Positions 12,148-52,358 of a stretch of 64,000 nt of DNA are shown here, piece after piece. The notes under the pieces are model-generated. The model was not told the origin of the DNA. It saw only the letters and a program-made list of their open reading frames with translations, and searched no databases. The stretch is from positions 4,361-68,360 of the forward strand of contig JAFGSY010000045.1 of NCBI GenBank assembly GCA_016934315.1. Direction: 5' to 3'. Every line of letters begins with the position of its first letter. Within the stretch, counting starts at the first letter, position 1. This stretch comes from Candidatus Anaeroferrophillus wilburensis (GTDB lineage: Bacteria > Desulfobacterota > Anaeroferrophillalia > Anaeroferrophillales > Anaeroferrophillaceae). Position numbers and translations under genes: made by a program.

Positions 12148-12195
12148 CTCCGGGAACAAGCTTCCTGAGGTTTTAGCATAAGGAGAAAAATAGCG

Positions 12196-17419: not shown

Positions 17420-18292
17420 TCAGGGCTTCAGCACCTGAACCACCGCCTCTCCAATGTCGGCCGGGCTTTTCACCACTTCGATCCCGGCAGCGGTCATGGC
17501 GGCCATCTTTTCGGCCGCGGTGCCCTTGCCGCCGGCAATGATCGCTCCGGCATGGCCCATGCGCCGCCCCGGAGGCGCCGTCTGCCCGGCGATGAAGCCT
17601 ACCACCGGTTTGGTCATGCAGTTGCTGACAAAAGCAGCCGCTTCCTCCTCGGCGGAACCGCCGATTTCGCCAATCATCACCACCGCTTCGGTTTCCGGGT
17701 CCTCCTCAAACAGGGCCAGCAGATCGATAAACTGGCTGCCGATGATCGGGTCACCGCCGATGCCGATGCAGGTGGACTGCCCCAGACCCCGTTCGGTGAG
17801 CTGTTTCACCGCCTCATAGGTCAGGGTGCCGCTGCGGGAGATAAGACCAACTTTGCCCTTCAGGTGGATAAAGCCAGGCATGATGCCCACCTTGGCTTCA
17901 TCTGGGGTGATCACCCCTGGACAGTTGGGGCCGACCAGCCGGGTTTGGCCATCATCAAGGTAGGCTTTGGCCTTCACCATATCGACGGTGGGGATCCCTT
18001 CGGTGATGCAGACCACCAGGTCAACCCCGGCATCAGCAGCTTCCATGATCGCATCAGCAGCAAAGGGGGGCGGCACAAAAATCAGCGACACGTTGGCACC
18101 GGTCTGCTGGACGGCACTCTCAACGGTATTGAATACCGGAATACCATCCATATCCTGGCCGCCCTTTCCAGGGGTAACCCCGGCAACCACCTGGGTGCCA
18201 TAGGCTACACACTGGCGAGTATGGAACATCCCTTCCTGGCCGGTGATCCCCTGGACGAGAATTTTTGAATCTTTATTAACTAAGATGGACAT
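17420..18292 (-). CDS. sucD: succinyl-CoA synthetase subunit alpha
   Basis: 290 aa [27 protein letters not shown]... Canonical SucD N-terminus and CoA-binding/His-phosphorylation region. Confidence 0.9.
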
Positions 18293-18353
18293 GCTTTTCT
18301 ACCTCCTCATCAGACATTACGAGATCAGTACCAGCACCGTGCGGCAGCTGGAA

Positions 18354-19517
18354 CTACTGGATGGCGGCCACCACTTTCTGGGCCGCGTCCGCCAGGCCCC
18401 GGCCGACAATCATGTCGATACCGGATTCCTCGAGAATTTTTGAGGCCTCTTCGGCATTGGTGCCTTCCAAGCGCACCACCAGCGGTACTTTGATTTCCAC
18501 CTGCTTGGTCGCTTCGATAATACCGTTGGCAATCCGGTCACAGCGGACGATGCCACCGAAGATATTGATCAGCACCGCCTTGACATTGGGATCGGAGAGG
18601 ATAATACGAAAGGCGTTGGCCACCCCTTCGGCATTGGCGCCGCCCCCGACATCGAGGAAGTTCGCCGGCTCACCGCCGGCCAGCTTGATGATATCCATGG
18701 TCGCCATGGCCAGGCCGGCCCCATTGACCATGCAGCCCACATTGCCATCAAGCTTGATATAGTTGAGACCGAACTTGGATGCCTCGATCTCCAGAGGCTC
18801 CTCTTCGGAAAGATCCCTGAGTTCCGTCCAACTGTCCTTGTGCCGGTACTGGGCATTATCGTCAAAGTTTATTTTTGCATCAAGAGCCAGAACCCGGCCG
18901 TCACCGGTAACCACCAGCGGATTGATCTCCAGCAGCGAGCAGTCATTGGCTTCAAAGGCTTTGAAGAGATTGATGAACATCCGCGACGCCTGGCGCACCA
19001 GCTGGGCATCCAAGCCGAGTTTATAGGCAATTTTGGCCGCCTGGAACGGCCGCAGACCCAGGAGCGGATGAACATATTCCTTGACAATTTTTTCCGGGGT
19101 TTCGGCGGCCACCTTTTCGATCTCCATCCCCCCCTCGGTACTGGCCATGATCACCGGCTGATTGGTGGCCCGGTCAATGACAATCCCGAAGTAGTATTCC
19201 TTCTGGATATCCATCCCCTCTTCCACCAGCAGCCTTTTGACTTCCTTGCCTTCGGGACCGGTCTGGTGGGTCACCAGTTGCATGCCGAGAATCTGCTTGG
19301 CTGTTTCATGGGCTTCGTCGGGACCGTTGACCACCTTGACGCCGCCGCCCTTGCCCCGGCCGCCGGCATGAATCTGGGCCTTGACTACCACGGTGCCGCC
19401 GCCCAGATCGATCGCCGCCTGTTTAGCATCATCGACGGTGAAGACGGCAAATCCCCTCGGAACCTCAACCCCGAAGTCCCGCAACAGTGCCTTCGCCTGA
19501 TATTCATGAATTTTCAT
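18354..19517 (-). CDS. sucC: succinyl-CoA synthetase (ADP-forming) subunit beta
   Basis: 387 aa [22 protein letters not shown]... ATP-grasp N-terminus and C-terminal CoA-ligase domain. Confidence 0.9.
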
Positions 19518-19648: not shown

Positions 19649-21325
19649 TTAGCGCATCCCGCCCTGATAATGGGTGGTCAACTGTTTTTCCATGGTCTCT
19701 TCACGGGTATAGTTGGGCAGCACCAGCGGTGACACCCGGTTGGTTTCCACCCCGGCAGCCTGCAGTTCGGCATGGAACTGACGCACGTGATCCATGGTCA
19801 AAGTGCTCGACTGATTTTCCAGGCCCTTGACATATTCCGCCGCGCTCCGGCCGGCCCGCCGGCCGAAAACGGTGATATCCAGCAGGGAATTACCCATCAG
19901 CCGGTTTTCTCCATGGACGCCGCCCGAAGCTTCCCCGGCACCGAACAGACCAGGCACTCCGGTTTCAGTCAGGTTATTGATCTGCAGACCGCCATTCTGG
20001 TAGTGCAGGGTGGGATAGACCAGCATGGGCACCTTGCTGATATCGATATCATAGCGCATGAATTGGATATACTTGGCCGGCAGTTCCTGTTTCACTGCCC
20101 CGGGTCCCTCAAGCACCTCGATCATCGGCGAATCAAGCCAGACACCGATCCGGCCGGTGGGGGTGATAATCCCTTTATTCCGATCCAGGCATTCCTGGAT
20201 GATGCAGGCTGATTCCACATCCCGCGGCTCCCGCTCAAAGACAAACTGTTCACCATTGATATTCAGCAGGTTGGCCCCAAGCCCTCGGACCTTTTCCGTA
20301 ATCAGCAGACCGATATTCTGTTCCGGAAAGGCAACACCGGTGGGATGATACTGGGTTGAATGCATGAAGGCCAGCGGCACCCCGGCACGATAGCCGATTA
20401 CCAGCCCGTCAGCGGTGGCACCATAGTGGTTGGTGGTGGCAAACCCCTGGACATGCAGGCGGCCGTAACCGCCGGTGGCAACCACCGTCGCTTTTGCCCT
20501 GATGGCAAAGTATTCCTCGGTCTCCATATTGTAGAACAGTGCCCCGGCGCAGCGGCCCTGGGTATCCTTGAGGATCTCCACCGCCGCCGAGAATTCAAGA
20601 ATGGTAATCATATCCTGCCGGTTGCGAGCTTCATCCCGCAGCACCCGCATGATTTCCGAACCGGTCATATCGCCGGCTGAATGCATTCGTTTACGGCTGG
20701 TACCGCCGCCATGGCGGACCCGCAGACGACCATCGGCATTCTTGTCAAACATCATCCCCAGCCGTTCCAGCCATTCGATAACCAGGGGTGCATCATGGGT
20801 GAGAGCTTCCACCAATTCGGGAGTATTGGTAAAGTGCCCACCACCGATGACATCAAGATAATGGAAATAGGGAGAATCCACTTCCTGGGTCGCCCCCTGG
20901 ATGCCACCTTCAGCCATCACCGTATTGGCATCCCCGTGCCGCAGCTTGGTGGCCAGCACAACCTTGGCTCCATGTTCCGCCGCCAGCAGGGCGGCTGAAG
21001 TCCCGGCACCGCCACCGCCGATTACCAGCACATCGGTTTCATAAGCCACCAGATCCTGCAACGCGGCATCATCCACCAGCAGCCTGCTTTTGGATTCCAG
21101 CAGGTCGACAAACTCATCCGGATAGCTCTCACCTTTGCTGGGCCCCACTTTTACGGCCCGGCGTCCCTCTTTTTTGTAATCGGGATGGAATTTACCCAGA
21201 ACCTCTTCGCGACCGGCCAAGGTCAAGGGAGTAAAGTGCTCCCCCTTCTTGGCCCGTTCAATGCGTTCGGGCCGGCTTTTTTCCACCCGCTTAATCAATT
21301 CCAGCATTTCAGGAGTGTATCCCAT
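19649..21325 (-). CDS. succinate dehydrogenase/fumarate reductase flavoprotein subunit-like protein with about 95-aa N-terminal extension
   Basis: 558 aa. FAD fold DVLVIGGGGAGTSAALLAA. Active-site region HYGATADGLVIGYRAGVPLAFMHSTQYHPTG resembles SdhA/FrdA (His/Arg catalytic residues). No adjacent membrane-anchor genes. Confidence 0.8.
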   Translation of the reverse strand: MGYTPEMLELIKRVEKSRPERIERAKKGEHFTPLTLAGREEVLGKFHPDYKKEGRRAVKVGPSKGESYPDEFVDLLESKSRLLVDDAALQDLVAYETDVLVIGGGGAGTSAALLAAEHGAKVVLATKLRHGDANTVMAEGGIQGATQEVDSPYFHYLDVIGGGHFTNTPELVEALTHDAPLVIEWLERLGMMFDKNADGRLRVRHGGGTSRKRMHSAGDMTGSEIMRVLRDEARNRQDMITILEFSAAVEILKDTQGRCAGALFYNMETEEYFAIRAKATVVATGGYGRLHVQGFATTNHYGATADGLVIGYRAGVPLAFMHSTQYHPTGVAFPEQNIGLLITEKVRGLGANLLNINGEQFVFEREPRDVESACIIQECLDRNKGIITPTGRIGVWLDSPMIEVLEGPGAVKQELPAKYIQFMRYDIDISKVPMLVYPTLHYQNGGLQINNLTETGVPGLFGAGEASGGVHGENRLMGNSLLDITVFGRRAGRSAAEYVKGLENQSSTLTMDHVRQFHAELQAAGVETNRVSPLVLPNYTREETMEKQLTTHYQGGMR

Positions 21326-21389
21326 GCTTTACATCCTCCCTGTTGTATGACTTGAAAAAAAGTCCATCATCATTGGTTTGCAATTCAAC

Positions 21390-22187
21390 CTAAAGTTTTG
21401 TTTTGTCCTGGGGTTCCCAGCCGACACTGTCCTGGGGTTCCATTTCCCGGTCAACATACAGTTTCCGCAAGGTATCATGATCACTGCCCACCAGGTCAAG
21501 AAGCAGGGTATCATACTTATGCTCATTAATCTCCCCTACCCGGTTCTGAAGATGTTCCGCCTGGGGAACTTTATAGCGGGCGTACAGCCGGCGGCACATC
21601 TGTGCCAGGTGAAAGTGCTGGATCTGGGCCGGACAGCGGGACGAACACAAGCCGCACTGAATGCAGTCAAAAGAAAGCCGGGCAACCTTAGCCAGATCAC
21701 CGCGCATGGCAGCATTGACGTATTCCATCACTTCGATATCCATCGGACAGGCCTTGGTGCAGGTGTTGCAGGCCACGCACTTCATCACCTCCGGATAGAG
21801 TTTCATGATTGATTCCGCTGTTGCCGAAGTTTCCTCAATATTGTAGACTGCCCGGTTGGCGGGGAAAAACGGCACCTGGGTCAGGTACATATTCTCCTGA
21901 ACCACGGTTTGACAGGCCAGACCAAAGTGGAGATGATAATCTCCCAGTATCCGGTAGACCGTGCCGCAGGCACCACAGATGCCACCCCGGCAGCCGCAGG
22001 CCCGGATAAACTGATAACCGGCATATTCCGTCGCTTTCTGGATGGTCAGTGTTTCCGGCACCATGTACCGTTTACCCATAATGTAGATGGGCACCAGCCG
22101 GGTACCTTCAGGAAGTATGGCCCGATCACCGGTTGCAATCTTGAATTCTTTTTGTCCCTCACTCATATCCTTGTCCTCCTGCTTCAT
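21390..22187 (-). CDS. succinate dehydrogenase/fumarate reductase iron-sulfur subunit-like protein
   Basis: 265 aa. 2Fe-2S-like CGCRGGICGACG...C. Clusters CVACNTCTKACP and CIQCGLCSSRCP (both CX2CX2CX3CP). 64-bp gap to flavoprotein gene. Confidence 0.75.
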   Translation of the reverse strand: MKQEDKDMSEGQKEFKIATGDRAILPEGTRLVPIYIMGKRYMVPETLTIQKATEYAGYQFIRACGCRGGICGACGTVYRILGDYHLHFGLACQTVVQENMYLTQVPFFPANRAVYNIEETSATAESIMKLYPEVMKCVACNTCTKACPMDIEVMEYVNAAMRGDLAKVARLSFDCIQCGLCSSRCPAQIQHFHLAQMCRRLYARYKVPQAEHLQNRVGEINEHKYDTLLLDLVGSDHDTLRKLYVDREMEPQDSVGWEPQDKTKL

Positions 22188-22217: not shown

Positions 22218-23363
22218 TTATCTGGCCCCGGACTCATCCTGCAGTTCATCTTCTTTATAGGTGGTTACCGGCGCCGGTTCATCATAGCTGCGGCCGGGGA
22301 GATACTCGATTGCCTGCTGAGCCCGCATACCCACGGTGCGGAACAGCGACATCACCGGGATATCACTGGGACAGGCGGTATCACAAAGGCCACAACCGAT
22401 GCAGGAGGTGACCATGTGGTTAAGGCGGGTAGTATGAAACATCAGGGTATTGGCCGGCATCCGCATGGCCCCCTTACGCTCCGCCCAGCTCAGATATTGA
22501 TCCGGGGTATGCTCAAAGGTAGGGGAACGGAAAACACATTCACGGCAATAGCAGATGGGACAGTTGATCATACAGTTGTGACATCGGATGCAGGTGGAAA
22601 GCAGCTCCTGCATCCCCTTGAGGGAGCCGATACGCTGACCAAACTCACCCAGAACAACATCACGGTTGGCTGTCCGTGCCTTGGCAAGCTGGTCGATACA
22701 TTCCTGACGGGTTGGCGCTTCCTGACCATTGATTGCCAAAATGTCTTTGGCCGCAAAGGCATCAGCCAACTCATCCCGGACTGCCAGACACAGCTGTTTA
22801 GCCGTATCCACCCCCCAAAGACCGATCACCACATCAACAACCTCCGGATTCGGTGCCGGAAACTCGCAGATATCACAGGCACTGCGGAAGGCATAGCCAT
22901 CCAAAGGGGCAAAGCTACCAGCCGCCGCTTTCTGCCGCAGATCAGCAGCCGGATGATGACCTGCCTTGACCATCGCCGAATAGACCTTCGGCTCATAGGT
23001 TCCCAGGCAGTCGACGGCAATAATCATGATTGCCGAACGAATGATCTGCTGAAACTTGACCAGCTCGACGATGGCCCGCACTTCACATGGTTTGACTACC
23101 ACCCCGATCACCTCACCGGGTTCCCGGACCGCCAGGTTAGCGATAATCCTTGCCGACTGGACCGGCATCACCGGCACCGTCACATCGGTATCAGCCAGCA
23201 TGGCCGGATCCTTGATCAGGGCCTGGACATAGTTGTCGCCGCCGGTGTTCTTTTTCGGCACCAACAGGCTGCCCACCAGGCCGCTTGCCAGCAACCGGCT
23301 GAGAAAGCCGCTGATTTCTTCATTGTAATTATCGCTTTTCAGGTCGATAAGCGTCGATTTCAT
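22218..23363 (-). CDS. FrhB/FdhB-like (coenzyme F420 hydrogenase/dehydrogenase beta-subunit family) protein fused to 4Fe-4S dicluster domain
   Basis: Start set at MKSTLIDL (RBS GGAGACAG upstream; the longer ORF would overlap mvhD). FrhB-like region KPCEVRAIVELVK...IAVDCLGTYE. C-terminal CIRCHNCMINCP and CIGCGLCDTACP. Confidence 0.65.
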   Translation of the reverse strand: MKSTLIDLKSDNYNEEISGFLSRLLASGLVGSLLVPKKNTGGDNYVQALIKDPAMLADTDVTVPVMPVQSARIIANLAVREPGEVIGVVVKPCEVRAIVELVKFQQIIRSAIMIIAVDCLGTYEPKVYSAMVKAGHHPAADLRQKAAAGSFAPLDGYAFRSACDICEFPAPNPEVVDVVIGLWGVDTAKQLCLAVRDELADAFAAKDILAINGQEAPTRQECIDQLAKARTANRDVVLGEFGQRIGSLKGMQELLSTCIRCHNCMINCPICYCRECVFRSPTFEHTPDQYLSWAERKGAMRMPANTLMFHTTRLNHMVTSCIGCGLCDTACPSDIPVMSLFRTVGMRAQQAIEYLPGRSYDEPAPVTTYKEDELQDESGAR

Positions 23364-23383
23364 CACGTTCTCTGTCTCCGTAA

Positions 23384-23821
23384 TTAGATATCCCATTCCT
23401 GGGCCAAAGGATTGGCCCCCTGCTCTTCCAGAGCGCCACTGAATTCCCGCACCGTTTCGACAAACAGGCGCCCCTCGCTGGCGCTGATCCACCGTAGCCA
23501 GACCCGGTCGGCATCCATCCCCAGGCAGGCCATGATTTCCCGCAAGAGCGCTATGCGGCGCCGGGCCTTGAAGTTGCCGCTCTGGTAGTGGCAGTCACCC
23601 GGATGACAACCGCCGATCATCACCCCGTCGGCACCTTCCAGGATGGCTTTCAAAACATAGACAACGTCGATGGCTCCCGAACACATCAGGTGAATCACCC
23701 TGATCCCGGATGGATACTGCTGCCGGGTGGTGCCGGCAAGATCGGCACCGGTATAGGTGCACCAGTGGCATAAGAATGCGACAATCCGCGGCTCAAAATT
23801 TTCCGACATAACTTCCCTCAC
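23384..23821 (-). CDS. mvhD: MvhD-like (methyl-viologen-reducing hydrogenase delta subunit family) protein
   Basis: 145 aa with FLCHWCTYTGADLAG ... CSGAIDVVYVLKAILEGADGVMIGGCHPGDCHY, the hallmark Cys pattern of MvhD/FlxD. Confidence 0.8.
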   Translation of the reverse strand: MREVMSENFEPRIVAFLCHWCTYTGADLAGTTRQQYPSGIRVIHLMCSGAIDVVYVLKAILEGADGVMIGGCHPGDCHYQSGNFKARRRIALLREIMACLGMDADRVWLRWISASEGRLFVETVREFSGALEEQGANPLAQEWDI

Positions 23822-23892: not shown

Positions 23893-26800
23893 TTAAAACA
23901 GTCGATTGACCATCGCCATCACCTGGCCCTTGTCAAACCCGTACTGCTGGGTGGCCCCGTTGGGACAGACGGAAGCACAGCTTCCACAGCCATGACAGAG
24001 ATCATAGTGAACATCGGCAATCCTAGTCTCCTGGTTCAGTTCCCGGGCCCCGTAGGGGCAGGCTTCAACGCAGAGGCCGCAGCCGCTGCACAGGCGGGTG
24101 CTGACGGTCACCGCCGTTTTTTCACTGACCAGCTCGCCCTTGCCCAGCACCGTCGCCGCCCTCGCCGCCGCCGCCCGGGCCCGGATCAGCGTTTCATTGA
24201 TATGCAGCGGAGCGGATGCCAGACCGCAATGGTAGCGTCCTTCACCAACAAAATCAACCAGGGCTGCTTTGGCATTCGCTTCCTGGTAGAAGCCGAAATC
24301 ATCAAGGGGCAGACCCAGCAACCGGGAAAGCTCACCAACTTCATGAGGTTCGACCCCGGTGCTCAAGACCACGTAGTCGGCCGCCAGCGAAAGCTTCTGC
24401 TGGAGAATCTGATCATCATAGGTGACCTGCAGGCTATGACTGCCGATCTCGACAACCGGCTTCTGCTCCACGTCATAGGTGGTAAAGAGCACTCCGGCTT
24501 CACGGGCCCGGCGGTAATCATCCTCATAGAGGCCATAGGCGCGCAGATCACGGTAAAGAACCACAACTTCAAGGGTCGGGTTAAGTTCTTTCAACTTCAG
24601 GGAATTTTTCAGGGCATGGGTGCAGCAGACCCGACTGCAGTATTCCCGTTTTCCCCGCTCACGGGAACCGACACATTGGATCATCACCACCCGTTGAAGA
24701 TTTTTCAGGGCTTCACCATTCGTGGCAACCAGCGATTCCAGTTCAGACTGCGTCAAAACCCGCTCGTCCTGACCCCGGAGATACTCATCGGTTGACGCTT
24801 CCCGGCCACCGGTGGCCATCACCAGCACCCCGTGACGGATCAGATGATCAGTCTGATCGTCATCCAGGCGAAAGATGGTGGTATAGTTGCCGGTCCGCCC
24901 TTCATGATGGCTCACTGTCGCCCGGCAGTATACGTCCAGATTCTCCTGGGCCGCAACTGCCTGACGCAGCTTTTCAACCAGCTGCTTAGGCTCCCCTCCC
25001 CTGAGGGTGTAGTGGGAATCCTTGGCCAACCGGCCGCCCAGCTGTTCCTCTTTCTCCAGCAAGGTTACAGGATAACCGCGGCCGGCCAGGGAAAGGGCGG
25101 CCGTCATGCCGGCAACGCCACCGCCGATCACCAGGGCCCGCTGATCAACCGCAATGGTCTGTACAGCCATCGTCTGCCGACTGCCGAACACCTGGGTAAT
25201 GGCTGCCTGCAGCAACGCTCTGGCCTTCGCGGTCGCCGCCTGACGATTGTTGTCATGAACCAGGGAACACTGTTCCCGCAAATTAGCCAGGGCGAAAAAA
25301 GCGCTGTTGAACCCGGCCAGACGGGCAAATTCGTCGCACTGACGTTCCATCTCCCGCACGGAACAAGCACCCAGCACCATCCGGTTCAATGAATGCTTGC
25401 CGATGGCCTGCTGGACGATGGCAAAGCCACCGGTGATGCAGGCATTGTCGATAATTTCCACATGGGCCACATGGGGCTCGGTCCGCACAGCCGCCGCCAG
25501 TGACTCCAGATCCAGCTGCTCTTCCAGCAGACCGCTGCAGCGGCAGAGAAAAACACCAATCCGCGGCCTTTCCTCCCAAACCGCCCCTTCCCGGGGCATC
25601 TTCGGACACTGCTCAGCGGCCGGTTCCCGGCTTACGGCAGCGGCAATCAGATCGGCGGCACAGGCCGCTTCCATCACTGTTTCAGGAATATCTTTGGGGC
25701 CGGTAAATGCCCCGGCCGCATAGATCCCGGCAACCGATGTTGCGGCTGGAAAAAATTCATCGGGACGGCAGAAACCATAATCATCAAGAGCATCGGCCGG
25801 CAAACCGGTACAATCGAGGATCGGGGCATCAAAACCGAGGGAGAGAACCACCAGGTCAAACTCCTCCTCCCGCCGGCGGCCATGATCATCAGCAATCAGG
25901 CGTAACTTCCGGCTTTGGGGATCCTCCTTGACGGTGGAGATCATCGACCGCTGGTAGCGAATGCCGTAGTGCTCTTCGGCTTCCCAGAGATAGCGCTCGT
26001 ACTCCTTGCCCATGCCGCGGAGATCCATGTAATAGATGGTGACCTCGGTTTCCGGCAGCCGTTTTTTGAGAAACATGGCCTGCTTGGTGGCATACATGCA
26101 GCAGACACTGGAGCAGTAACCACGGCCGCAGGCAATGTCCCGGGAACCGGCACACTGGATAAAAGCCACCCGTTCAGGAGCGGAACCATCGGTCAGCAGC
26201 CGGGGAGCACCACCAGTCGGGCCAGAATAGCTGATCATCCTCTCCATCTGACGGCTGGTAATGACATTGGCATAGCGACCGAAGCCGAACTCCCCCTTCA
26301 ACGTGCCCTCAACCAGGGAAAAACCCGGGGTCAGCAGGATCGCCGCCACCTGTTCATCACGCTGTCCGGTTGGCATATCCAGGTCGATCGCCTTGGTGGG
26401 GCAGATGTCGACACAGGCGCCGCAGCGGTTGCAGGCGGCGGCATCAATACGGTAGCCCGCCTTCACCATTTTTGGATACTGTTTATAAATTGCCTTGCGC
26501 TCCTCCAGCCCGCCGCTGAATTCATCGGCAACGGCAACCGGACAGACGTCACTGCATTTGCCGCAGTCGATGCACTTGTCCTGATCGACACCATGGGGAT
26601 CGACAGCCAGGGTGACGATAAAATCGCCCTGCTCGCCGGCAATGGCCAGCGGCCTGGCATTAACCTGGATTTCAAGATTCTGGTGCAGGCGGCACTCAAC
26701 AAAGGGACAATAAGCCGGCTGGCGAGGCGATAAAAAGCAGACGCCGCAGGAGTTCGTCGGAAAGGTGTTGTCCAGCAGAGGGAAAAATCCGCCGATGGCC

Positions 26801-26937
26801 GCCTCTTTTTCCACCAGGCAGACGGCGTGACCTTGCTCCGCCAACAACAGAGATGCTGTCATGCCGGCAAAACCACCGCCGACCACCATAATTTTTTTCT
26901 TGTCCGCAGAGTTACTCATCACGCCTGTTACACCCAT
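23893..26937 (-). CDS. giant HdrA-like flavoprotein: tandem fusion of two HdrA modules (1014 aa)
   Basis: Two FAD folds (MVVGGGFAGMTASLL; LVIGGGVAGMTAALSL). Two HdrA Cys clusters (CAGSRDIACGRGYCSSVCCMY; CVGSRERGKREYCSRVCCTH). Three or more ferredoxin CX2CX2CX3CP motifs. Real start may be the internal MSNSADKKK. Confidence 0.8.
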   Translation of the reverse strand: MGVTGVMSNSADKKKIMVVGGGFAGMTASLLLAEQGHAVCLVEKEAAIGGFFPLLDNTFPTNSCGVCFLSPRQPAYCPFVECRLHQNLEIQVNARPLAIAGEQGDFIVTLAVDPHGVDQDKCIDCGKCSDVCPVAVADEFSGGLEERKAIYKQYPKMVKAGYRIDAAACNRCGACVDICPTKAIDLDMPTGQRDEQVAAILLTPGFSLVEGTLKGEFGFGRYANVITSRQMERMISYSGPTGGAPRLLTDGSAPERVAFIQCAGSRDIACGRGYCSSVCCMYATKQAMFLKKRLPETEVTIYYMDLRGMGKEYERYLWEAEEHYGIRYQRSMISTVKEDPQSRKLRLIADDHGRRREEEFDLVVLSLGFDAPILDCTGLPADALDDYGFCRPDEFFPAATSVAGIYAAGAFTGPKDIPETVMEAACAADLIAAAVSREPAAEQCPKMPREGAVWEERPRIGVFLCRCSGLLEEQLDLESLAAAVRTEPHVAHVEIIDNACITGGFAIVQQAIGKHSLNRMVLGACSVREMERQCDEFARLAGFNSAFFALANLREQCSLVHDNNRQAATAKARALLQAAITQVFGSRQTMAVQTIAVDQRALVIGGGVAGMTAALSLAGRGYPVTLLEKEEQLGGRLAKDSHYTLRGGEPKQLVEKLRQAVAAQENLDVYCRATVSHHEGRTGNYTTIFRLDDDQTDHLIRHGVLVMATGGREASTDEYLRGQDERVLTQSELESLVATNGEALKNLQRVVMIQCVGSRERGKREYCSRVCCTHALKNSLKLKELNPTLEVVVLYRDLRAYGLYEDDYRRAREAGVLFTTYDVEQKPVVEIGSHSLQVTYDDQILQQKLSLAADYVVLSTGVEPHEVGELSRLLGLPLDDFGFYQEANAKAALVDFVGEGRYHCGLASAPLHINETLIRARAAAARAATVLGKGELVSEKTAVTVSTRLCSGCGLCVEACPYGARELNQETRIADVHYDLCHGCGSCASVCPNGATQQYGFDKGQVMAMVNRLF

Positions 26938-26965: not shown

Positions 26966-27787
26966 TTAAAACAGCCCCGAGGGATCATTGAAATGCTTCT
27001 TCCACCAGCGGGGACGATTGCCGATCTGGAACGCCTCAGCCATCATTTCAGTAAAATAGAGGATCGGCAACCGCTGCTGACGGATATCGACATTGGCCTG
27101 GCACAAAGCACAGGAGGTCACCATGCAATCCACCCCGGCAGCAACGGCATAATCAGTAATCCTGTTGACCAGTTTGGCCGCCTTATCGGGATGGGTCAAC
27201 CCCAGGTCACTGCCGCAGCAATCCACCTTGCAGGACCAGTCAACCACCTCCGCCCCCAGATCCGCCATCAAACGGTCAAGTCGCTGGGGGTTTTCCACAT
27301 CATCGGAACCGGTCACCTCCTGGGGACGGATAATGGCACAACCGTAGTAGCAGACCACTTTCAGACCGCTCAGGGGCTTTTTCACCAGCCCCTTGATCTG
27401 CTCCCGCCGCTGGTCATCGGCAAGGAGGTCGACGATGGACAGCATGCTGATCGTCCCGGAATAGGTAAAACCCAGCAGAGCTTCCAGCTCTTTTTTCTTT
27501 TCCGGATCGGTTTGCAGCACCCGCTGGGCCCGTGCCAGGTTATTGAAACAACCGGCACAGGGAATCACCAGATCTGCACCCTGCTTTTCAGCCTCGGCTA
27601 TATTAAAGGCCGACAGGCCAAGAGCCAGGGACTGGGAGAGATTATGGGCAGAGGCAGCCCCGCAGCAGGACCAATCGGGCAACTCTGCCAGCTCGATGCC
27701 CATTGCCGCCATCACCGCATGGCTGGCTTCGATATACTCAACCGCAGTGGAGTGATTGGTACAGCCTGGATAGTAGGAATATTTCAT
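26966..27787 (-). CDS. hdrB: heterodisulfide reductase subunit B-like protein (two CCG domains)
   Basis: MKYSYYPGCT...PDWSCCGA...VVCYYGCAIIRP...DWSCKVDCCGS... CCG-domain Cys patterns. Confidence 0.8.
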   Translation of the reverse strand: MKYSYYPGCTNHSTAVEYIEASHAVMAAMGIELAELPDWSCCGAASAHNLSQSLALGLSAFNIAEAEKQGADLVIPCAGCFNNLARAQRVLQTDPEKKKELEALLGFTYSGTISMLSIVDLLADDQRREQIKGLVKKPLSGLKVVCYYGCAIIRPQEVTGSDDVENPQRLDRLMADLGAEVVDWSCKVDCCGSDLGLTHPDKAAKLVNRITDYAVAAGVDCMVTSCALCQANVDIRQQRLPILYFTEMMAEAFQIGNRPRWWKKHFNDPSGLF

Positions 27788-27816
27788 AATATATCAGAAT
27801 ATCAAAGTGTTAATAA

Positions 27817-28347
27817 CTATTTTACACCTGACTTATCAAATATTTCTTTTATCTTCTTAATATTCTTTGATTTTTTTGGAAGAATGGGAATTTTTCCCTT
27901 AAGGAAGAGCTTTAGGCCCACATCGACATCGGTAGTAAAATTCCTGGTTTTCATTTTATACTGCATGAGCATGGTGGCTTCATGAATGCGGCCGAAAGTC
28001 CGGATGCTGCCGGTGAAAGCCCGGTGAAAATCCACCGTCACCTGATCCGCAGGCGCAATCCCCTCTTGCAGACACATCTCCCGCAGGACATCCATTACCG
28101 GTGCCGTTTTGATACCGTTTGGGCAGCGGGTGCCGCAGGTTTCACAGGAAACACACATCCAGATTGCTTTGCTGCGCAGCAGCTCATCCTTCATCCCCAA
28201 TTGAATCATCCGCATCACCATGTTGGGCGGATAATCAAAGTCATCCACCGTCGGACAGCCAAGGGTGCATTTGCGGCACTGGTAGCAGAGATTGACGGGT
28301 TGGCCGCTTCGGGCCACTACCTGCTCGAGAAAGGTTTGCTCAGCCAT
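27817..28347 (-). CDS. hdrC: heterodisulfide reductase subunit C-like protein
   Basis: 176 aa. CYQCRKCTLGCP and CVSCETCGTRCP ferredoxin motifs in HdrC arrangement. Confidence 0.8.
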   Translation of the reverse strand: MAEQTFLEQVVARSGQPVNLCYQCRKCTLGCPTVDDFDYPPNMVMRMIQLGMKDELLRSKAIWMCVSCETCGTRCPNGIKTAPVMDVLREMCLQEGIAPADQVTVDFHRAFTGSIRTFGRIHEATMLMQYKMKTRNFTTDVDVGLKLFLKGKIPILPKKSKNIKKIKEIFDKSGVK

Positions 28348-30332
28348 TACTCAGCTCCTTGCTCCACCAGCTCCAGAGCCGGGCTTTCCTGAACAAAATC
28401 ACCAATCATCCGGATAAATTGACAGGAGGTTGAATTCACCAGTTCACATGCTTTATTGGGGCAGGCGGAGATACAGGCGCCGCAGCCCTGGCAGACCGCT
28501 TGGTTGACCTCGGAAATTCGGCTGAAATCATTCATCACCCGTGCTCCGTAGGGACAGATTTCCACACAGATGCCGCAGCCGCTGCAGACATCGTCCTTGA
28601 CTTCGGCAATCAGCGGATCGGCAATCAGAGTTTCATTGGAAAACAGGGTCTGAATTTTTCCGGAAGTGGCTAAAGCCTGGGAAACCGTATCAGTTATATC
28701 TTTGGGTGACTGGCAACAACCAGCCAGGTAAACACCCTTGGTGGAGCTTTCCACCGGATAGAGCTTGATATGGGTTTCAGAGAAAAATCCCTCTTCGTCC
28801 ACCGTCACCCGCATCTTCTTGGCCAGCTCTTTGATGCCAGCCCGCGGCTCCATCGCCAGGGCGAGAACCACCAGATCGGCATCGATCTCAACTTTTCTGC
28901 CCGTCAGGGTGTCAGCGGTCCAGACTTTTAGACTCTGGTTTTCCGGAAAAATTTTAGCCACCCGGCCGCGAATATAGACCAGCCGGTCCTCCTCCATCCC
29001 CTGCTGGACAAACTCCTCAAAATCGCGGCTGTCGGAACGGATATCCATATAGGAGATATATGCCATCCCCTCCGCCACCTGCTGGCGGTACTGACGAGCC
29101 TGTTTGGCAACATACATGCAGCAGGCCCGGGAGCAGTAGGGCTTATGCCGTTCAGGGTCACGGGAACCGACGCACTGGACAAACACCACACTCCTGGGAA
29201 TCCGGCCGTCGGAAGGGCAGACAACTTTACCGCCGGTTGGCCCCAGGGGATCAAGCATCCGCTCCATGGCCAGACCATCTATTACATCAGGATAGCGGCC
29301 GCCGCCATATTCGGGAAACTGCCGCTGGTCATACAGGTCATAACCGGTGGCCATGATAATCGCACCAATCTTCTCCACCTCAGACTCCGGCTCAGCGGCA
29401 AAAGAGATCGCCGCTTCACTGCAAGCCTGGAAACATTTATCGCAACTGCCATCGGCAACGTGCAGGCAGGCATCCTGATCGACAACCGGCTTCAGCTCCT
29501 GACCACCATATCGGTAGATTGCGCCGCGGGTGGTCAGTCCGCGATCAAAAGCATTGGGCAGTTGAACCGGACAGACCTCCAGACAGGCACCGCAATTGGT
29601 ACAAAGCTCCTGGTTGACATAGGCAGCCTGGGTGGCAATGGTAACCTCAAAATTACCCACGTAGCCATCCAGGTCAGCTACTTCGGCATTGCAGTACACC
29701 TTGATGTTCGGGTGCGCCATCACCTCCTGCACCTTGCGGCCAAGCATGGCTGGCACATCCTGAAAATAGGGAAAGGTTTTTCCCAGCTGCCGCATATGGC
29801 CGCCGATGGCTGGCTGCTTTTCCACCATGGCCACGTCATAGCCGGCATCGGCAAGATCCAGGGCCGCCATGATTCCGGCAATACCGGCACCTACCACCAG
29901 TACCCGTTTATTAAGCGAGATGGTAATGGTTTCCAACGGGATATTGTCGCGCACCTTATCCAGGGTGGCCTCGATGATATTGATCGCTTTAGCAGTGGCC
30001 ACCGGCTTATTATTCTGATGGACCCAGCTGCACTGTTCGCGGATATTGGCGATTTCCACCAGGTAGGAATTCAGCCCCACGAGACCGGCTGCCTTGCGGA
30101 AGGTATTTTCGTGCATCCGGGGCGAGCAGCAGGCCACCACCACCCCGTTGAGCCCTTCTTTTTCAATGGTATCTTTCACCAACTGCTGGCCGGGATCAGA
30201 ACACATGTACATGTAGTTCTCGGCATGCTTGACATCCTTACATTTCCGGACCTCTGTCACCACCCGGTCGACATCAACACTACCGGCAATATTGGAACCG
30301 CACCAGCAGACAAAAACCCCTATTTTTTTCAT
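28347..30332 (-). CDS. hdrA: heterodisulfide reductase subunit A-like flavoprotein
   Basis: 661 aa. N-terminal Cys domain MKKIGVFVCWCGSNIAG. FAD fold VLVVGAGIAGIMAAL. CVGSRDPERHKPYCSRACCMY. Inserted and C-terminal ferredoxin domains (CTNCGACLEVCP, CSGCGICVEICP, CQGCGACISACP). Confidence 0.85.
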   Translation of the reverse strand: MKKIGVFVCWCGSNIAGSVDVDRVVTEVRKCKDVKHAENYMYMCSDPGQQLVKDTIEKEGLNGVVVACCSPRMHENTFRKAAGLVGLNSYLVEIANIREQCSWVHQNNKPVATAKAINIIEATLDKVRDNIPLETITISLNKRVLVVGAGIAGIMAALDLADAGYDVAMVEKQPAIGGHMRQLGKTFPYFQDVPAMLGRKVQEVMAHPNIKVYCNAEVADLDGYVGNFEVTIATQAAYVNQELCTNCGACLEVCPVQLPNAFDRGLTTRGAIYRYGGQELKPVVDQDACLHVADGSCDKCFQACSEAAISFAAEPESEVEKIGAIIMATGYDLYDQRQFPEYGGGRYPDVIDGLAMERMLDPLGPTGGKVVCPSDGRIPRSVVFVQCVGSRDPERHKPYCSRACCMYVAKQARQYRQQVAEGMAYISYMDIRSDSRDFEEFVQQGMEEDRLVYIRGRVAKIFPENQSLKVWTADTLTGRKVEIDADLVVLALAMEPRAGIKELAKKMRVTVDEEGFFSETHIKLYPVESSTKGVYLAGCCQSPKDITDTVSQALATSGKIQTLFSNETLIADPLIAEVKDDVCSGCGICVEICPYGARVMNDFSRISEVNQAVCQGCGACISACPNKACELVNSTSCQFIRMIGDFVQESPALELVEQGAE

Positions 30333-30353
30333 CGATGTTTTTCCCGTTATTCC

Positions 30354-31739
30354 CTATTCAGCAGCCGCCGACTGCCGGCCACGGCGCAAAGATGAGAGAA
30401 ATACCTGTACCTTGCTGGCCGCCGCGCTGCCCTGGGCAACACTGTCGGCAATATCCTTGGTCCCCTGACAGCAGCCGGCCAGGAAAATCCCTTGCTGCCC
30501 GCTGTCAATAGGAGCCAGCTTATAATCCTCTTCAACGAAGAAACCGTCCTTATTGCACCTGATGCCAAGGATATCAGCCAGTTTTTCCGCCCCTTCATTG
30601 GGAACCATGGCTGCGGCCACCACCACCAGATCAGCGGCGATCTCAACCTTTTTACCACTCAGGGTGTCAGCTCCCCAGACCATCACCTTATCACCCTGCT
30701 GAACCAACTTGGCAGCCCGACCCCGAAGATAGACCAGGTTTTCTTCAGAGGTTGACTGCTGGAGAAACTGCTCATAGCCCTTGCCGGTGGTTCGCAGGTC
30801 AATGTAAAAAATATAGGCTTGCCCGTCATGGACCTTATGCTTATAGAGTCGGGCATGCTTGGCGGTATACATGCAGCAGACCCGTGAGCAGTAGGATTTA
30901 TGCAGCTCCGGGTTCCGGGAACCGACACACTGGATGAACACCACATCCCGGGGCACCCGACCGTCCGACGGCCGAAGAACCTTGCCAGCGGTGGGCCCGG
31001 AGGCCGAGAGAAAACGCTCCATGGTCAGCCCGTCAATAACGTCGGGTATCATTCCGCCGCCCAGTTCCGGCATGTTACGTTTCCAGTCGTAGATATCAAA
31101 ACCGGTGGCCACCACAATGGCCCCCACCCGCTCCTCGAAAAAACTGTCCTGCTGCTCGAAATCAATCGCCCCCACCGGGCAGACCTTGGCACAGACACCG
31201 CACTTGCCCTTCGTAAGGTAGCGGCAGAACTCCTCGTTAATCACCGGCTTGTTGGGCACCGCCTGGGGAGACGGGGTATAGATTGCTTTCATTGTCCCGG
31301 CATCACGCTCGAAAAGGGAGAAATTCTTAGTCGGACACTTCTCCACACAAGTGCCGCAGCCGGTACACTTGCTCCAGTCAACATAGGCCCGCTTCTGGCG
31401 GATACTGACGGTGAAATCACCCGGCTGGCCACTGAGGCCTTCCACTTCACAGTAAACCTTCAGCTGGACATTGGGGTGCTGGCCCGTTTCCACCGTTCTG
31501 GGAGTCAGGGTACACTGGGCGCAATCAAGGGTGGGGAAAGTTTCGGACAGCTGCAGCATCCGGCCGCCAATCGCCGACAGCCGCTCCACCAGAACCACCT
31601 GGTACCCGGCGCTGCCGAGATCGATGGCGGTGGTAATCCCGGCAATGCCGCCGCCGATCACCATAACCCGTCGATCTACGGGTACAGTTGCTGCCGGTGC
31701 CTTTTGCTGCTCTTCACTCATCTGCACAACGTCTCCCAT
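30354..31739 (-). CDS. second HdrA-like flavoprotein (shorter, QmoA-like length)
   Basis: 461 aa. VMVIGGGIAGITTAI, CVGSRNPELHKSYCSRVCCMY, CTGCGTCVEKCP. Lacks the N-terminal Cys domain of the 661-aa paralog. Confidence 0.8.
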   Translation of the reverse strand: MGDVVQMSEEQQKAPAATVPVDRRVMVIGGGIAGITTAIDLGSAGYQVVLVERLSAIGGRMLQLSETFPTLDCAQCTLTPRTVETGQHPNVQLKVYCEVEGLSGQPGDFTVSIRQKRAYVDWSKCTGCGTCVEKCPTKNFSLFERDAGTMKAIYTPSPQAVPNKPVINEEFCRYLTKGKCGVCAKVCPVGAIDFEQQDSFFEERVGAIVVATGFDIYDWKRNMPELGGGMIPDVIDGLTMERFLSASGPTAGKVLRPSDGRVPRDVVFIQCVGSRNPELHKSYCSRVCCMYTAKHARLYKHKVHDGQAYIFYIDLRTTGKGYEQFLQQSTSEENLVYLRGRAAKLVQQGDKVMVWGADTLSGKKVEIAADLVVVAAAMVPNEGAEKLADILGIRCNKDGFFVEEDYKLAPIDSGQQGIFLAGCCQGTKDIADSVAQGSAAASKVQVFLSSLRRGRQSAAAE

Positions 31740-31751
31740 GCCTCGCGCCCC

Positions 31752-32630
31752 CTATTCGACTCCGATCCCTTTGGCCTGCAGCATGGGCAGCGGATCGATG
31801 AGATTACGTTCAAACCCGAGTTCAGCCACCGGTAATTCCAAGGCCAGGGCCAGCAGCTGGGTGAAATAGACCACGGGAATCTGCTCGAAGGAGGGGTCGG
31901 CTTTTTTTATCTCCGGCTGCCGGTCATCCAGATTGAACTGGCACAAGGGGCAGGTGGTGATCACCAGGTCGGCACCGCAGTTTCTGGCACTGTTGAGAAT
32001 ATCCCGTGAACAGCGGGTGGCCAGATCCATAGAATGGACGGTCTGGAAGGCGCTGCAGCATTCAATTTTAAAAGGGAAATCAACCGGCTCCGCTCCCAAA
32101 GCACGGACAAAATCCTCAAAGATGGTGGGATTTTCCATGCTGTCAAGGCCGATCTCCTTCACCGGCCGCAGCAGCAGACAACCATAGTAGCAGGCGACCT
32201 TCAGGCCTTCCAGTGGCTTGCTGATCTTCTCAGCCAGCTGGTCAAAACCCAGTTCATCACGCAGAACCTGAAGGTAATGCAGCACTTCGGTCTCACCATG
32301 ATAGTCCCGTTCAATAAAATCGGTAATCTTAGCCCGCCGTTCTTCATCGGTGCGCATGACGTGATTGGTGCGTTTGAGCACATTGTAGCAGACCGAGCAG
32401 AGCGCCACCAGCTTATCACTGCCCTGCTCCTTGGTGTCGGCAAGTATCCGGGTGGGGCCGGACATGGCGATATGATAATCATTCACCAGCGGAAAGGTTG
32501 CCCCGCAGCAGGTCCAGTCGGGAAGCTCATCCAGCTCAAACCCCAGGCGCCGGCTGCACTCACGACCGGCATCATCGAGCTTCTTGGCTTTGGTGTAGAG
32601 GGTACAGCCCGGGAAGTAGGTATAGTTCAT
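31752..32630 (-). CDS. second HdrB-like protein (CCG domains)
   Basis: MNYTYFPGCT...PDWTCCGA...VACYYGC...IECCSA...TTCPLCQFN. Confidence 0.8.
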   Translation of the reverse strand: MNYTYFPGCTLYTKAKKLDDAGRECSRRLGFELDELPDWTCCGATFPLVNDYHIAMSGPTRILADTKEQGSDKLVALCSVCYNVLKRTNHVMRTDEERRAKITDFIERDYHGETEVLHYLQVLRDELGFDQLAEKISKPLEGLKVACYYGCLLLRPVKEIGLDSMENPTIFEDFVRALGAEPVDFPFKIECCSAFQTVHSMDLATRCSRDILNSARNCGADLVITTCPLCQFNLDDRQPEIKKADPSFEQIPVVYFTQLLALALELPVAELGFERNLIDPLPMLQAKGIGVE

Positions 32631-32661
32631 CTGCTAACTCCAAAAAAAGTATGCCAATCTC

Positions 32662-33078
32662 TTACAGCGAGAGAAATTTGCGATAGCCGCTGATCATGGC
32701 TATCTGTGGTGCCCTCTCAAGATAATCATCATCGAAATCCGTAACATCAATCCGGGAATTATGCTCATCCTCCCGCAGGCGCAGCACCCGCAGGGCATCC
32801 ATAATCTTGGAAATATCCACCCCCTTGGGGCAGCGGGCATGACACATGAGGCAGGCGGCGCACACCCACATGGATTTACAGGTTTTCACCTCTTCCACCA
32901 GGCCAAGCTGCAGATAGCGGACCACCTGGCTGGGCAGCAGATCCATCTCTTCCACCGATGGGCAGCCAGCCGAACAGTTTCCGCACTGATAACAGTTAAA
33001 GAAATTCTCACCGCTGATTTCCGCCACTTTCTGGACAAAATCGGCGCGGACGGTATCCTGAGAAATCGTTGCTTTCAT
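32662..33078 (-). CDS. second HdrC-like protein
   Basis: Start set at MKATISQ (avoids large overlap with fumB). CYQCGNCSAGCP and CAACLMCHARCP. Confidence 0.7.
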   Translation of the reverse strand: MKATISQDTVRADFVQKVAEISGENFFNCYQCGNCSAGCPSVEEMDLLPSQVVRYLQLGLVEEVKTCKSMWVCAACLMCHARCPKGVDISKIMDALRVLRLREDEHNSRIDVTDFDDDYLERAPQIAMISGYRKFLSL

Positions 33079-33088
33079 GGCCTTTCCC

Positions 33089-33643
33089 CTATTTCTGGTA
33101 CTGGCTGACTCCCTGCTCATACAGGTCATTGCCGTAAATATCATTGACCACCACCACCGGAAAATCCTCTACCTCCAGACGGCGGATGGCCTCCGGCCCT
33201 AAATCCTCATAAGCAATCACTTCCGCCTTTTTGATCCGCTGGGCCAACAGGGCACCTGCTCCGCCCACTGCGGTGAAGTATATCCCCTTATAGGTCTTCA
33301 TGGCATCTTTTACCGCCTGACTGCGCCCCCCCTTGCCGATCATGCCCTTGAGTCCATGGGCCAGCAGGGTGGGAGAATAGGAATCCATGCGGTAGCTGGT
33401 CGTCGGTCCGGCAGCACCGATGGCATGCCCCGGCCGGGCCGGGGTCGGCCCGACAAAATAGATAATCTCCCCCTGCAACGGCAATGGCAGTTCTTTGCCC
33501 TGCTCCAGCAGATCCACCAGACGTTTATGGGCCGCATCCCGCCCGGTGTAGATCGTTCCACTGATCAAAACCCGATCGCCGCTGCGCAGGCGCTCCACAT
33601 CAGCATCGGTCAATGGCGGAGTCAGGCGAATAGCTTCACTCAT
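33089..33643 (-). CDS. fumB: class I fumarate hydratase (Fe-S hydro-lyase) beta subunit
   Basis: Start at MSEAIRLTPPLTDADVERLRSGDRVLISG. C-terminal catalytic domain of two-subunit class I fumarase/tartrate dehydratase family. Confidence 0.7.
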   Translation of the reverse strand: MSEAIRLTPPLTDADVERLRSGDRVLISGTIYTGRDAAHKRLVDLLEQGKELPLPLQGEIIYFVGPTPARPGHAIGAAGPTTSYRMDSYSPTLLAHGLKGMIGKGGRSQAVKDAMKTYKGIYFTAVGGAGALLAQRIKKAEVIAYEDLGPEAIRRLEVEDFPVVVVNDIYGNDLYEQGVSQYQK

Positions 33644-33656
33644 AGCAACCTCTTTA

Positions 33657-36127: not shown

Positions 36128-36194
36128 CGCTTTTCCTCCAAAAAAATTAGGTTATGCTGCTGGTTATAGCCATTTCACCAGAAGGTGAAATAAT

Positions 36195-36974: not shown

Positions 36975-37026
36975 TACACACCTCTTTTTAAGTCTTTCCT
37001 GTTATCTGCAATGGGCAGCTATCCCA

Positions 37027-52324: not shown

Positions 52325-52358
52325 AATGCTATTCGCTCTCCGCCCTATCCTGCCGCCA

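Follow-up and report, generated by a model that had tools for sequence, protein, structure and literature searches.

The locus described here raises the question of how a fumarate reductase-like enzyme is supplied with electrons when its operon encodes no membrane anchor. Fumarate reduction is, in the textbook picture, a quinone-dependent process of the membrane. The window, by which we mean the whole 64,000-nucleotide stretch analysed (Candidatus Anaeroferrophillus wilburensis, GenBank assembly GCA_016934315.1, contig JAFGSY010000045.1, positions 4,361 to 68,360 of the forward strand), carries at positions 19,649 to 22,187 an SdhA/SdhB-like pair, a flavoprotein and an iron-sulphur (Fe-S) subunit, within a minus-strand operon that also holds fumarase, Hdr (heterodisulfide reductase), HdrL, MvhD and succinyl-CoA synthetase genes. 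On balance we read the pair as the catalytic core of a fumarate reductase that works in the cytoplasm without quinone and draws its electrons from Hdr-type modules, perhaps through electron bifurcation, and we hold this view with a confidence that is better than even though well short of certainty. A first-pass annotation of the sequence had proposed that electrons are handed over to a protein partner (Hdr) and not to quinone, and our analysis supports this, since transmembrane segments are absent from all 15 operon proteins and HdrB, HdrC, HdrA and MvhD genes stand at most of the 61 loci, drawn from many phyla, that were surveyed for relatives of the pair. If the reading is true, the family would let quinone-free anaerobes reduce fumarate in the cytoplasm, and the drop from NADH (-320 mV) to fumarate (+33 mV) could possibly yield reduced ferredoxin as well.

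The flavoprotein and iron-sulphur subunits

The features of the flavoprotein, whose cofactor is flavin adenine dinucleotide (FAD), are as follows.

19649..21325, minus strand: flavoprotein subunit, fumarate reductase-like, FAD_binding_2, 558 aa (open reading frame, Pfam, NCBIfam and PDB matches)
21335..21340, minus strand: Shine-Dalgarno sequence GGGAGG, 9 nt upstream of the flavoprotein ATG
21041..21325, minus strand: N-terminal extension, residues 1-95, with no Pfam or PDB relative (conservation, profile searches)
19883..21034, minus strand: FAD-binding and capping core, residues 98-481 (Pfam and alignment)
19652..19882, minus strand: short C-terminal tail, residues 482-558, instead of the canonical helical/C-terminal domain of about 130 residues

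FAD_binding_2 (PF00890, residues 98-481, E 6e-73) is the only Pfam match of the flavoprotein, its top PDB sequence match is 7d6v_A (E 1e-70), and alignment with E. coli FrdA finds all substrate and catalytic residues kept, with FrdA H232, T244, E245, R287, H355 and R390 corresponding to H327, T343, E344, R368, H441 and R475. Judged on the sequence, the more telling departures from the canonical enzymes are two that the first-pass annotation had missed, namely the replacement of the His at the covalent FAD site and the loss of the C-terminal domain; that the fumarate site is complete had escaped it as well. We found that Asn134 occupies the position of the His that carries 8-alpha-linked FAD (His44 in E. 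coli FrdA, His45 in SdhA), that it is invariant in a 14-sequence alignment (A1) spanning 41-87% identity, and that the same His to Asn change is seen in the PDB alignment against Mycobacterium Sdh1. Non-covalent FAD accompanies fumarate reduction and not succinate oxidation, for example in the soluble flavocytochrome fumarate reductases, and His44 variants of E. coli FrdA retain fumarate reduction while succinate oxidation is lost. As for the second departure, no Succ_DH_flav_C domain was found with Pfam, and in an alignment with E. coli FrdA, SdhA and NadB the sequence runs out near FrdA residue 470, which leaves the helical and C-terminal domains missing; certain relatives terminate directly behind the FAD domain. 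A twin-arginine-type signal is absent from the N-terminus as read from the sequence.

No NCBIfam model reaches its cutoff on the flavoprotein, and all fall far short of it: TfrA scores best (334 bits, cutoff 718, aligned over positions 6-426 of the 546 in the model), followed by sdhA_frdA_Gneg (278 against 567), the NadB model TIGR00551 (270 against 452) and the SdhA model of MFR (219 against 1100), and the public annotation reads only 'FAD-binding protein'. That no curated cutoff is reached, that the public name is so general and that NadB models score 270 bits against 278-334 bits for Sdh/Frd models could suggest that the substrate is not fumarate at all, and that we are looking at an L-aspartate oxidase-like protein or another FAD_binding_2 enoate or dicarboxylate reductase with a ferredoxin-like partner. 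We consider this very improbable, because the flavoprotein has a Gly in the alignment where NadB has Glu121, the residue that binds the amino group of the substrate, because NadB is not known to have an Fe-S partner, and because fumarase, succinyl-CoA synthetase and, in Megasphaera, pyruvate carboxylase indicate the reductive branch of C4-dicarboxylate metabolism. The aspartate oxidase reading was rejected on these grounds.

The first-pass annotation had also drawn attention to an extension of about 95 residues ahead of the FAD fold, with which canonical SdhA and FrdA were said to begin directly. Both statements are borne out: the first GxGxxG motif (GGGGAG) lies at residues 103-108 and the Pfam domain starts at residue 98, whereas in E. 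coli FrdA, SdhA and NadB 8-12 residues precede the motif (alignment). It had proposed a check for a mis-called start, with the true one at an internal Met with a good ribosome-binding site, and when this was run the extension proved genuine, conserved and translated. Between residues 7 and 137 no Met occurs, and an identical protein stands in the public record from a Deltaproteobacteria metagenome-assembled genome (MAG). Among 120 listed homologues of 551-561 aa (119 relatives at 66-87% identity and the window's own protein, P0001) query coverage is 97-100%, and residues 1-80 are free of gaps with a mean identity to the query of 0.54-0.83, equal to that of the core. Moreover, about 75 loci spread over many phyla share the N-terminal sequence M[GPA]YTPE[ML]KELIK, starting at residue 1, and in most of them the Fe-S stop codon lies 4-170 nt upstream of the flavoprotein start. 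An exhaustive search against 50%-identity cluster representatives shows the extension from about residue 30-58 retained down to 41% identity, with matches below 41% starting at about residue 95, and in an alignment of 31 diverse extensions Y3, R18, L43, H47-P48-D49 and G61 are invariant. Pfam finds nothing in residues 1-97, and a profile of the extension run against PDB sequences returned only noise (best E 0.047). A mis-called start is ruled out by the ribosome-binding site, the conservation from residue 1, the short upstream spacers and the fusions described below, and on this evidence the extension is translated and conserved along with the rest of the protein and is no annotation error. 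The open reading frames (ORFs), translations and motif sequences quoted in the first-pass annotation were exact.

The Fe-S subunit is encoded 64 nt upstream of the flavoprotein ORF and has the following features.

21390..22187, minus strand: Fe-S subunit ORF, 265 aa; likely start ATG 22166 (258 aa)
21912..21992, minus strand: [2Fe-2S]-type ligands C66, C71, C74 and C92 (aligned to FrdB/SdhB cluster 1)
21744..21779, minus strand: CVACNTCTKACP, first [4Fe-4S] motif, C137/140/143/147 (alignment)
21630..21665, minus strand: CIQCGLCSSRCP, second complete four-Cys motif, C175/178/181/185, at the canonical [3Fe-4S] position (alignment)
21393..21629, minus strand: family-specific C-terminal tail of about 80 residues, ending in the conserved GWEPQDKxxL

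In alignment its Cys groups match the three cluster sites of E. coli FrdB and SdhB in the same order, and all twelve cluster Cys are invariant in 121 sequences, so the 2Fe-2S-like group and the further Cys motifs read earlier stand. Both later motifs have the form Cx2Cx2Cx3CP, and the claim that the third has four Cys in place of the three of a [3Fe-4S] centre is confirmed by the same alignment, in which Cys178 is the additional residue and stands at FrdB Val207 and the equivalent Ile of SdhB; the third site is therefore a full four-Cys site after correct gapping, and its reading as a mis-gapped three-Cys site is ruled out. Compared with FrdB, two loops are shortened by about 22 residues, one linking the [2Fe-2S] and ferredoxin domains and the other between the second and third Cys motifs, the latter being the loop that in FrdB lies near the quinone site. 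Pfam and NCBIfam return only generic 4Fe-4S dicluster models and a weak Fer2 match, with dhsB (TIGR00384) at 30 bits against a cutoff of 88 and TfrB at 25 against 385; Pfam finds no CCG domain, and the public annotation is only '4Fe-4S dicluster protein'. Of two in-frame ATGs at 22164-22187 on the minus strand, the second (22166, Met8) is the likelier start because AGGAGG lies 8 nt upstream of it and the public record has 258 aa. The four-Cys third-cluster motif is by itself not new. In type E succinate:quinone reductases the third site likewise holds a second [4Fe-4S] cluster and quinone is still reduced (PMC2754724), so the motif alone is not diagnostic and leaves room for quinone.

Five natural single-chain fusions of 709-737 aa, in which Fe-S subunit, extension and flavoprotein follow one another, show that the two proteins are parts of one enzyme, and in all five the extension's conserved part is retained. 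Between the last Cys motif and GxGxxG the fusions have 138-150 residues where the split form has 182 (80 + 102), and what the fusions lack is the conserved C-terminal end of the Fe-S subunit and the first 30 or so residues of the extension. From this loss we infer that the two segments tether the subunits when these are separate proteins, a role that the sequences suggest. In an AlphaFold model of one fusion (P0243), built on a 56-row alignment (mean predicted local distance difference test score (pLDDT) 82, predicted template-modelling score 0.70), the conserved part of the extension, about residues 35-95, is modelled at pLDDT 80-95 as a helix, an HPD turn, a beta-hairpin and a helix, and the linker ahead of it falls below 60. 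The best PDB fold match of the whole model in Foldseek is E. coli FrdA (1kf6_A), with only the flavoprotein matching.

The operon and the distribution of the family

From 5' to 3' the operon reads fumAB, HdrC-like and HdrB-like, a 461-aa HdrA-like protein, HdrA, HdrC, HdrB, HdrL-like, MvhD, FrhB_C/4Fe-4S, Fe-S subunit, flavoprotein, SucC and SucD. Besides the pair it comprises these features.

33089..34496, minus strand: class I fumarase at the head of the operon, alpha 33657-34496, beta 33089-33757
31752..33144, minus strand: HdrB/SdhE-like CCG protein (31752-32630) and HdrC-like protein (32662-33144), the pair type that is the most constant partner
28347..31739, minus strand: HdrA, 661 aa (28347-30332), and short HdrA-like protein, 461 aa (30354-31739)
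26966..28347, minus strand: second pair, HdrC-like (27817-28347) and HdrB-like CCG protein (26966-27787)
23893..26937, minus strand: HdrL-like protein, 1014 aa, with two HdrA/NAD(P)-binding flavoprotein modules and ferredoxin (4Fe-4S) domains
23384..23821, minus strand: MvhD/FlpD-type [2Fe-2S] protein
22218..23360, minus strand: FrhB_FdhB_C and 2x[4Fe-4S] protein, about 380 aa, in FlxC-like position, start uncertain
17420..19517, minus strand: succinyl-CoA synthetase, beta 18354-19517 and alpha 17420-18292, directly downstream of the flavoprotein

The listed ORF of the FrhB_C/4Fe-4S protein (22218-23492, minus strand) opens at a GTG at 23492 and overlaps the MvhD gene; since its homologues have 380 aa, ATG 23360 is the likelier start. 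With three further HdrA/HdrB/HdrC sets besides the 1014-aa HdrL-like gene (23893-26937, minus strand), Hdr genes are unusually dense in this one operon. Syntrophobacter fumaroxidans has an unassigned HdrABC/HdrL cluster, Sfum_0819-0824, which the window's Hdr cluster resembles (PMC5947623).

A scan of one genome per species found relatives of the flavoprotein in at least 599 species-level genomes. The best 80 of these relatives all come from MAGs and match at 54-74% identity over nearly their full length, the genomes being labelled Desulfobacterota, Chloroflexota, Aminicenantes, Cloacimonadota, Fermentibacteria, Zixibacteria, Nitrospirales, Gallionellales, Gemmatimonadota, Spirochaetes, Bacillota and Marinimicrobia, and the family is present as well in Clostridia and gut Megasphaera. 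With the window's proteins as tblastn queries, same-strand neighbours within about 10 kb were counted at the 61 loci where 6 kb or more of sequence precedes the flavoprotein gene.

Fe-S gene directly upstream of the flavoprotein: 60/61 loci
HdrB-like: 51/61 loci
HdrC-like: 43/61 loci
HdrA-like: 42/61 loci
MvhD: 35/61 loci
FrhB/FlxC-like: 21/61 loci
HdrL: 16/61 loci
sucC: 11/61 loci
fumarase: 10/61 loci

The minimal recurrent layout is HdrC, HdrB, Fe-S subunit, flavoprotein; a longer one has HdrA and MvhD between HdrB and the Fe-S gene, and the window represents a third, HdrA, HdrC, HdrB, HdrL, MvhD, FlxC-like, Fe-S subunit, flavoprotein. A locus with a 73%-identical homologue has the same gene order as the window. 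Twelve of the 61 loci have an HdrB-like gene with neither HdrA-like nor MvhD nearby.

Some loci of the family carry further genes. In the 73%-identical cluster L001 (13938-17103, plus strand) NuoE-like, NuoF-like and Fer2_4 proteins, an NADH-dependent module, follow sucCD, and a methylmalonyl-CoA mutase gene lies on the opposite strand near the cluster. In five Desulfobacterota loci (L010-L012, L016 and L017) a second flavoprotein paralogue, 30-34% identical and with HdrB/HdrC-like genes of its own, stands after sucCD about 7 kb downstream of the pair. At the Megasphaera locus L088 (4729-10611, plus strand) the pair comes directly after pyruvate carboxylase and its Fe-S protein is shorter, at 223 aa.

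A proposed electron path and its rivals

In the path that we propose, the flavoprotein would hold its FAD non-covalently in a complete fumarate/succinate site and would most likely work towards succinate, with fumarate coming from fumarase and the product being taken up by succinyl-CoA synthetase. The Fe-S subunit would serve as a wire of one [2Fe-2S] and two [4Fe-4S] clusters, of which the distal four-Cys cluster may receive electrons from a protein partner instead of quinol. Candidate partners are encoded in the same operon: the HdrC/HdrB-like proteins, three HdrA-type flavoproteins including the NAD(P)H-type HdrL, MvhD and the FlxC-like Fe-S protein. NAD(P)H would be oxidised by the HdrL/Flx-type module, the HdrA flavin would split the electron pair so that one electron goes to ferredoxin and the other downhill, and the latter might pass from HdrC/HdrB through the Fe-S subunit and FAD to fumarate, either directly or via a thiol/disulfide carrier as in the thiol:fumarate reductase of methanogens. 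Flavin-based bifurcation is plausible because the operon partners are Hdr-type modules with an NAD(P)H-type HdrL, and feasible because of the span between the redox potentials of fumarate (+33 mV) and NADH (-320 mV; PMC5861303). The extension is likely an integral, ordered part of the enzyme. Its most probable role, shared with the conserved tail at the C-terminus of the Fe-S subunit, is to hold the two subunits together, and it may in addition stand in for the lost C-terminal domain or offer a surface for docking.

Tentatively, and with clearly less confidence than the reading as a whole, we suggest that these parts form a single hard-wired, bifurcating NAD(P)H:ferredoxin/fumarate oxidoreductase, in which the pair would replace heterodisulfide as the high-potential outlet of the HdrA flavin, no diffusible thiol would be needed, and the extension and Fe-S tail would dock the pair into HdrB/HdrC or MvhD. 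If true, this would give quinone-free anaerobes across many phyla energy conservation from fumarate reduction and would feed the reductive branch of the tricarboxylic acid (TCA) cycle. A two-enzyme thiol shuttle is a possible but somewhat doubtful alternative. Here the HdrC/HdrB-like proteins, Fe-S subunit and flavoprotein would be a split thiol:fumarate reductase that uses a diffusible or protein dithiol (e.g. DsrC-like), and a separate Flx/HdrL-HdrABC complex would re-reduce the disulfide while reducing ferredoxin, with no hard-wiring to the bifurcating flavin. TfrA as the top NCBIfam model of the flavoprotein is consistent with this, as are the four-gene module without HdrA, the 12/61 loci mentioned above, and the two separate HdrCB pairs in the window, one beside fumarase and one in the HdrA/HdrL block; moreover, Tfr has been described as a fumarate reductase module joined to a CCG thiol dehydrogenase module (PMC2754724), and the option itself was raised in PMC6315080. 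However, no thiol carrier was identified, the scores of TfrA (334 versus 718 bits) and TfrB (25 versus 385) are low, and CCG proteins are not always disulfide-active, SdhE being one example (PMC2754724).

Several observations weigh against the reading of an Hdr-fed cytoplasmic fumarate reductase. Six of the 61 loci have no Hdr gene nearby, and in Megasphaera elsdenii and M. massiliensis the pair adjoins pyruvate carboxylase, again with no Hdr gene, so Hdr coupling is not obligatory; ferredoxin is probably the donor of this Hdr-less Megasphaera form. The occurrence of the family in syntroph lineages (Syntrophobacterales, Syntrophorhabdus, Cloacimonadota) would make succinate oxidation the relevant direction there. 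The CCG protein beside fumarase (HdrB1) scores about equally as HdrB (180.5 bits, cutoff 345) and, over its full length, as the SdhE of MFR (184.7 bits, cutoff 500), which makes peripheral membrane attachment or quinone use possible. In the literature searched we found no biochemical study of any family member, and substrate, direction, donor, partner roles, bifurcation and the part played by the extension are read here from what we observe of domain and motif content, conservation, synteny and fusions.

The HdrB1 scores also bear on a type E-like enzyme, a peripherally membrane-bound quinol:fumarate reductase or succinate dehydrogenase in which the HdrB-like CCG protein would be an SdhE-type monotopic anchor and quinone site. 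A four-Cys third cluster together with a CCG partner defines type E (PMC2754724), HdrB1 matches MFR SdhE along its full length, and its C-terminal helix is hydrophobic (Kyte-Doolittle hydropathy 1.69), but we think this unlikely, given that two marks of canonical SdhA/FrdA, the covalent-FAD His and the C-terminal domain, are missing from the flavoprotein, that the SdhE score is far short of its cutoff, that the soluble bifurcation components HdrA and MvhD occur at most loci, and that the family extends to Clostridia and Megasphaera, which usually lack quinones. The family shares with type E succinate:quinone reductase (SdhABEF of Sulfolobus and Acidianus) and MFR (SdhABE of Campylobacter and Wolinella) a second [4Fe-4S] cluster with four Cys at the third site (PMC2754724) and possibly an SdhE-type partner with two CCG domains; it differs in that type E SdhA has covalent FAD (PMC2754724), whereas here there is Asn, no C-terminal domain and a 95-residue N-terminal extension, and in the absence of a Tat signal, the weak dhsB match (30 versus 88 bits) and the co-occurrence with HdrA and MvhD.

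The direction can be questioned as well. Run in reverse, the pair would be a succinate dehydrogenase for syntrophic propionate oxidation, with Hdr confurcation driving succinate electrons to a lower-potential acceptor. Among the MAGs that carry the family are some labelled Syntrophobacteraceae, Syntrophobacterales, Syntrophaceae, Syntrophorhabdus and Cloacimonadota, the L001 cluster has a methylmalonyl-CoA mutase gene close by, and succinate oxidation is the recognised bottleneck in syntrophs (PMC5947623). We nevertheless judge this improbable, since FAD would be non-covalent (Asn134), since succinate (+33 mV) is too positive as a donor to the bifurcating flavin of HdrA, and since fumarase and succinyl-CoA synthetase frame the operon and the pair is also found in reductive TCA clusters (PMC6315080) and in a succinate producer (PMC7282089).

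Known systems and neighbouring genes

The thiol:fumarate reductase TfrAB of Methanothermobacter (Heim et al. 1998, as cited in PMC2754724 and PMC6315080) is similar in being a soluble fumarate reductase without a membrane anchor, built from a flavoprotein and an SdhB-like Fe-S module with HdrB-type CCG domains, and TfrA is the top curated model of the flavoprotein, yet far short of its cutoff. From the match to TfrA positions 6-426 of 546 it follows that TfrA has no N-terminal extension and that about 120 of its C-terminal residues are missing here. In the window's system, by contrast, the CCG domains stand on a separate HdrB-like protein and are not fused to the Fe-S subunit as in TfrB, there is an extra HdrC-like protein, and the hosts are bacteria, which are not known to have coenzymes M and B. 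Type E enzymes, thiol:fumarate reductase and Hdr have been connected through their CCG domains (PMC2754724). With SdhAB and FrdAB of E. coli complex II the pair shares the fold (1kf6_A), the substrate and catalytic residues and the order of the three cluster motifs; it differs in lacking membrane subunits, in having the Fe-S gene ahead of the flavoprotein gene, in Asn for the flavinylated His, the missing Succ_DH_flav_C domain and the N-terminal extension, and in the four-Cys third cluster, shorter inter-motif loops and 80-residue tail of the Fe-S subunit.

Closest in gene arrangement are Flx/Hdr-linked fumarate reductases, and the pair is a further member of a widespread family that was flagged before in two genomic or transcriptomic papers. 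The 'succinate operon' of Pseudoclostridium thermosuccinogenes holds fumarase, Flx-Hdr and a two-gene fumarate reductase, and fumarate reduction was proposed to be coupled to Flx-Hdr bifurcation (PMC7282089). The genes of tubeworm symbionts and Thioflavicoccus are arranged as putative frdB, frdA, hdrC, hdrB, korDABC, hdrA, flxDCBA, and the symbiont complex was suggested to bifurcate electrons to fumarate reductase and 2-oxoglutarate synthase (PMC6315080). We found this symbiont order again in locus L074 (frdB, frdA, hdrC, hdrB, kor genes, hdrA, flxD, flxC, flxB); including the extension, the flavoprotein of this locus shares 55% identity with that of the window. In this Gallionella-like, reductive TCA-type cluster a 177-aa ORF without Pfam match lies between the flavoprotein gene and hdrC (11732-12265, plus strand). 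Compared by gene arrangement, both these systems (PMC7282089, PMC6315080) and ours have a two-gene unit with Hdr/Flx and fumarase and/or reductive TCA genes; the window differs in an HdrL-type module and three HdrA-like proteins in place of FlxABCD, in two HdrCB pairs and in the added sucCD. HdrL was described in Desulfobacterium autotrophicum, in an HdrABC/HdrL-MvhD cluster (PMC2702500). The clusters of D. autotrophicum and S. fumaroxidans (PMC5947623) have the same composition (HdrA, HdrC, HdrB, HdrL, MvhD and an FdhB/FrhB-like Fe-S protein), but no substrate module was assigned there, whereas in the window and in loci of its type (e.g. L001, L008 and L026) the block ends directly in the pair. 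For the extension, the Asn substitution and the domain loss we found no description in the literature searched, which left a 2019 preprint outside.

The window therefore stands as one more well-preserved example with an unusually rich Hdr/HdrL context and brings no new idea, while the enzyme class would matter if bifurcation were shown. Metabolic reconstructions probably miss the family because of its generic public names ('FAD-binding protein', '4Fe-4S dicluster protein'), and since cultured Megasphaera and a succinate-producing thermophile possess it, the hypothesis is open to direct testing. Elsewhere in the window, upstream of fumarase (34955-39113, minus strand), two HMGL-like genes, an enoyl-CoA hydratase and an acyl-CoA dehydrogenase have the look of leucine/isovalerate-type degradation, and there are unrelated housekeeping genes for a DUF3300 protein (10780-12147, plus strand), SMC (52359-55958, minus strand) and an FtsY-type signal recognition particle receptor (51164-52450, minus strand).

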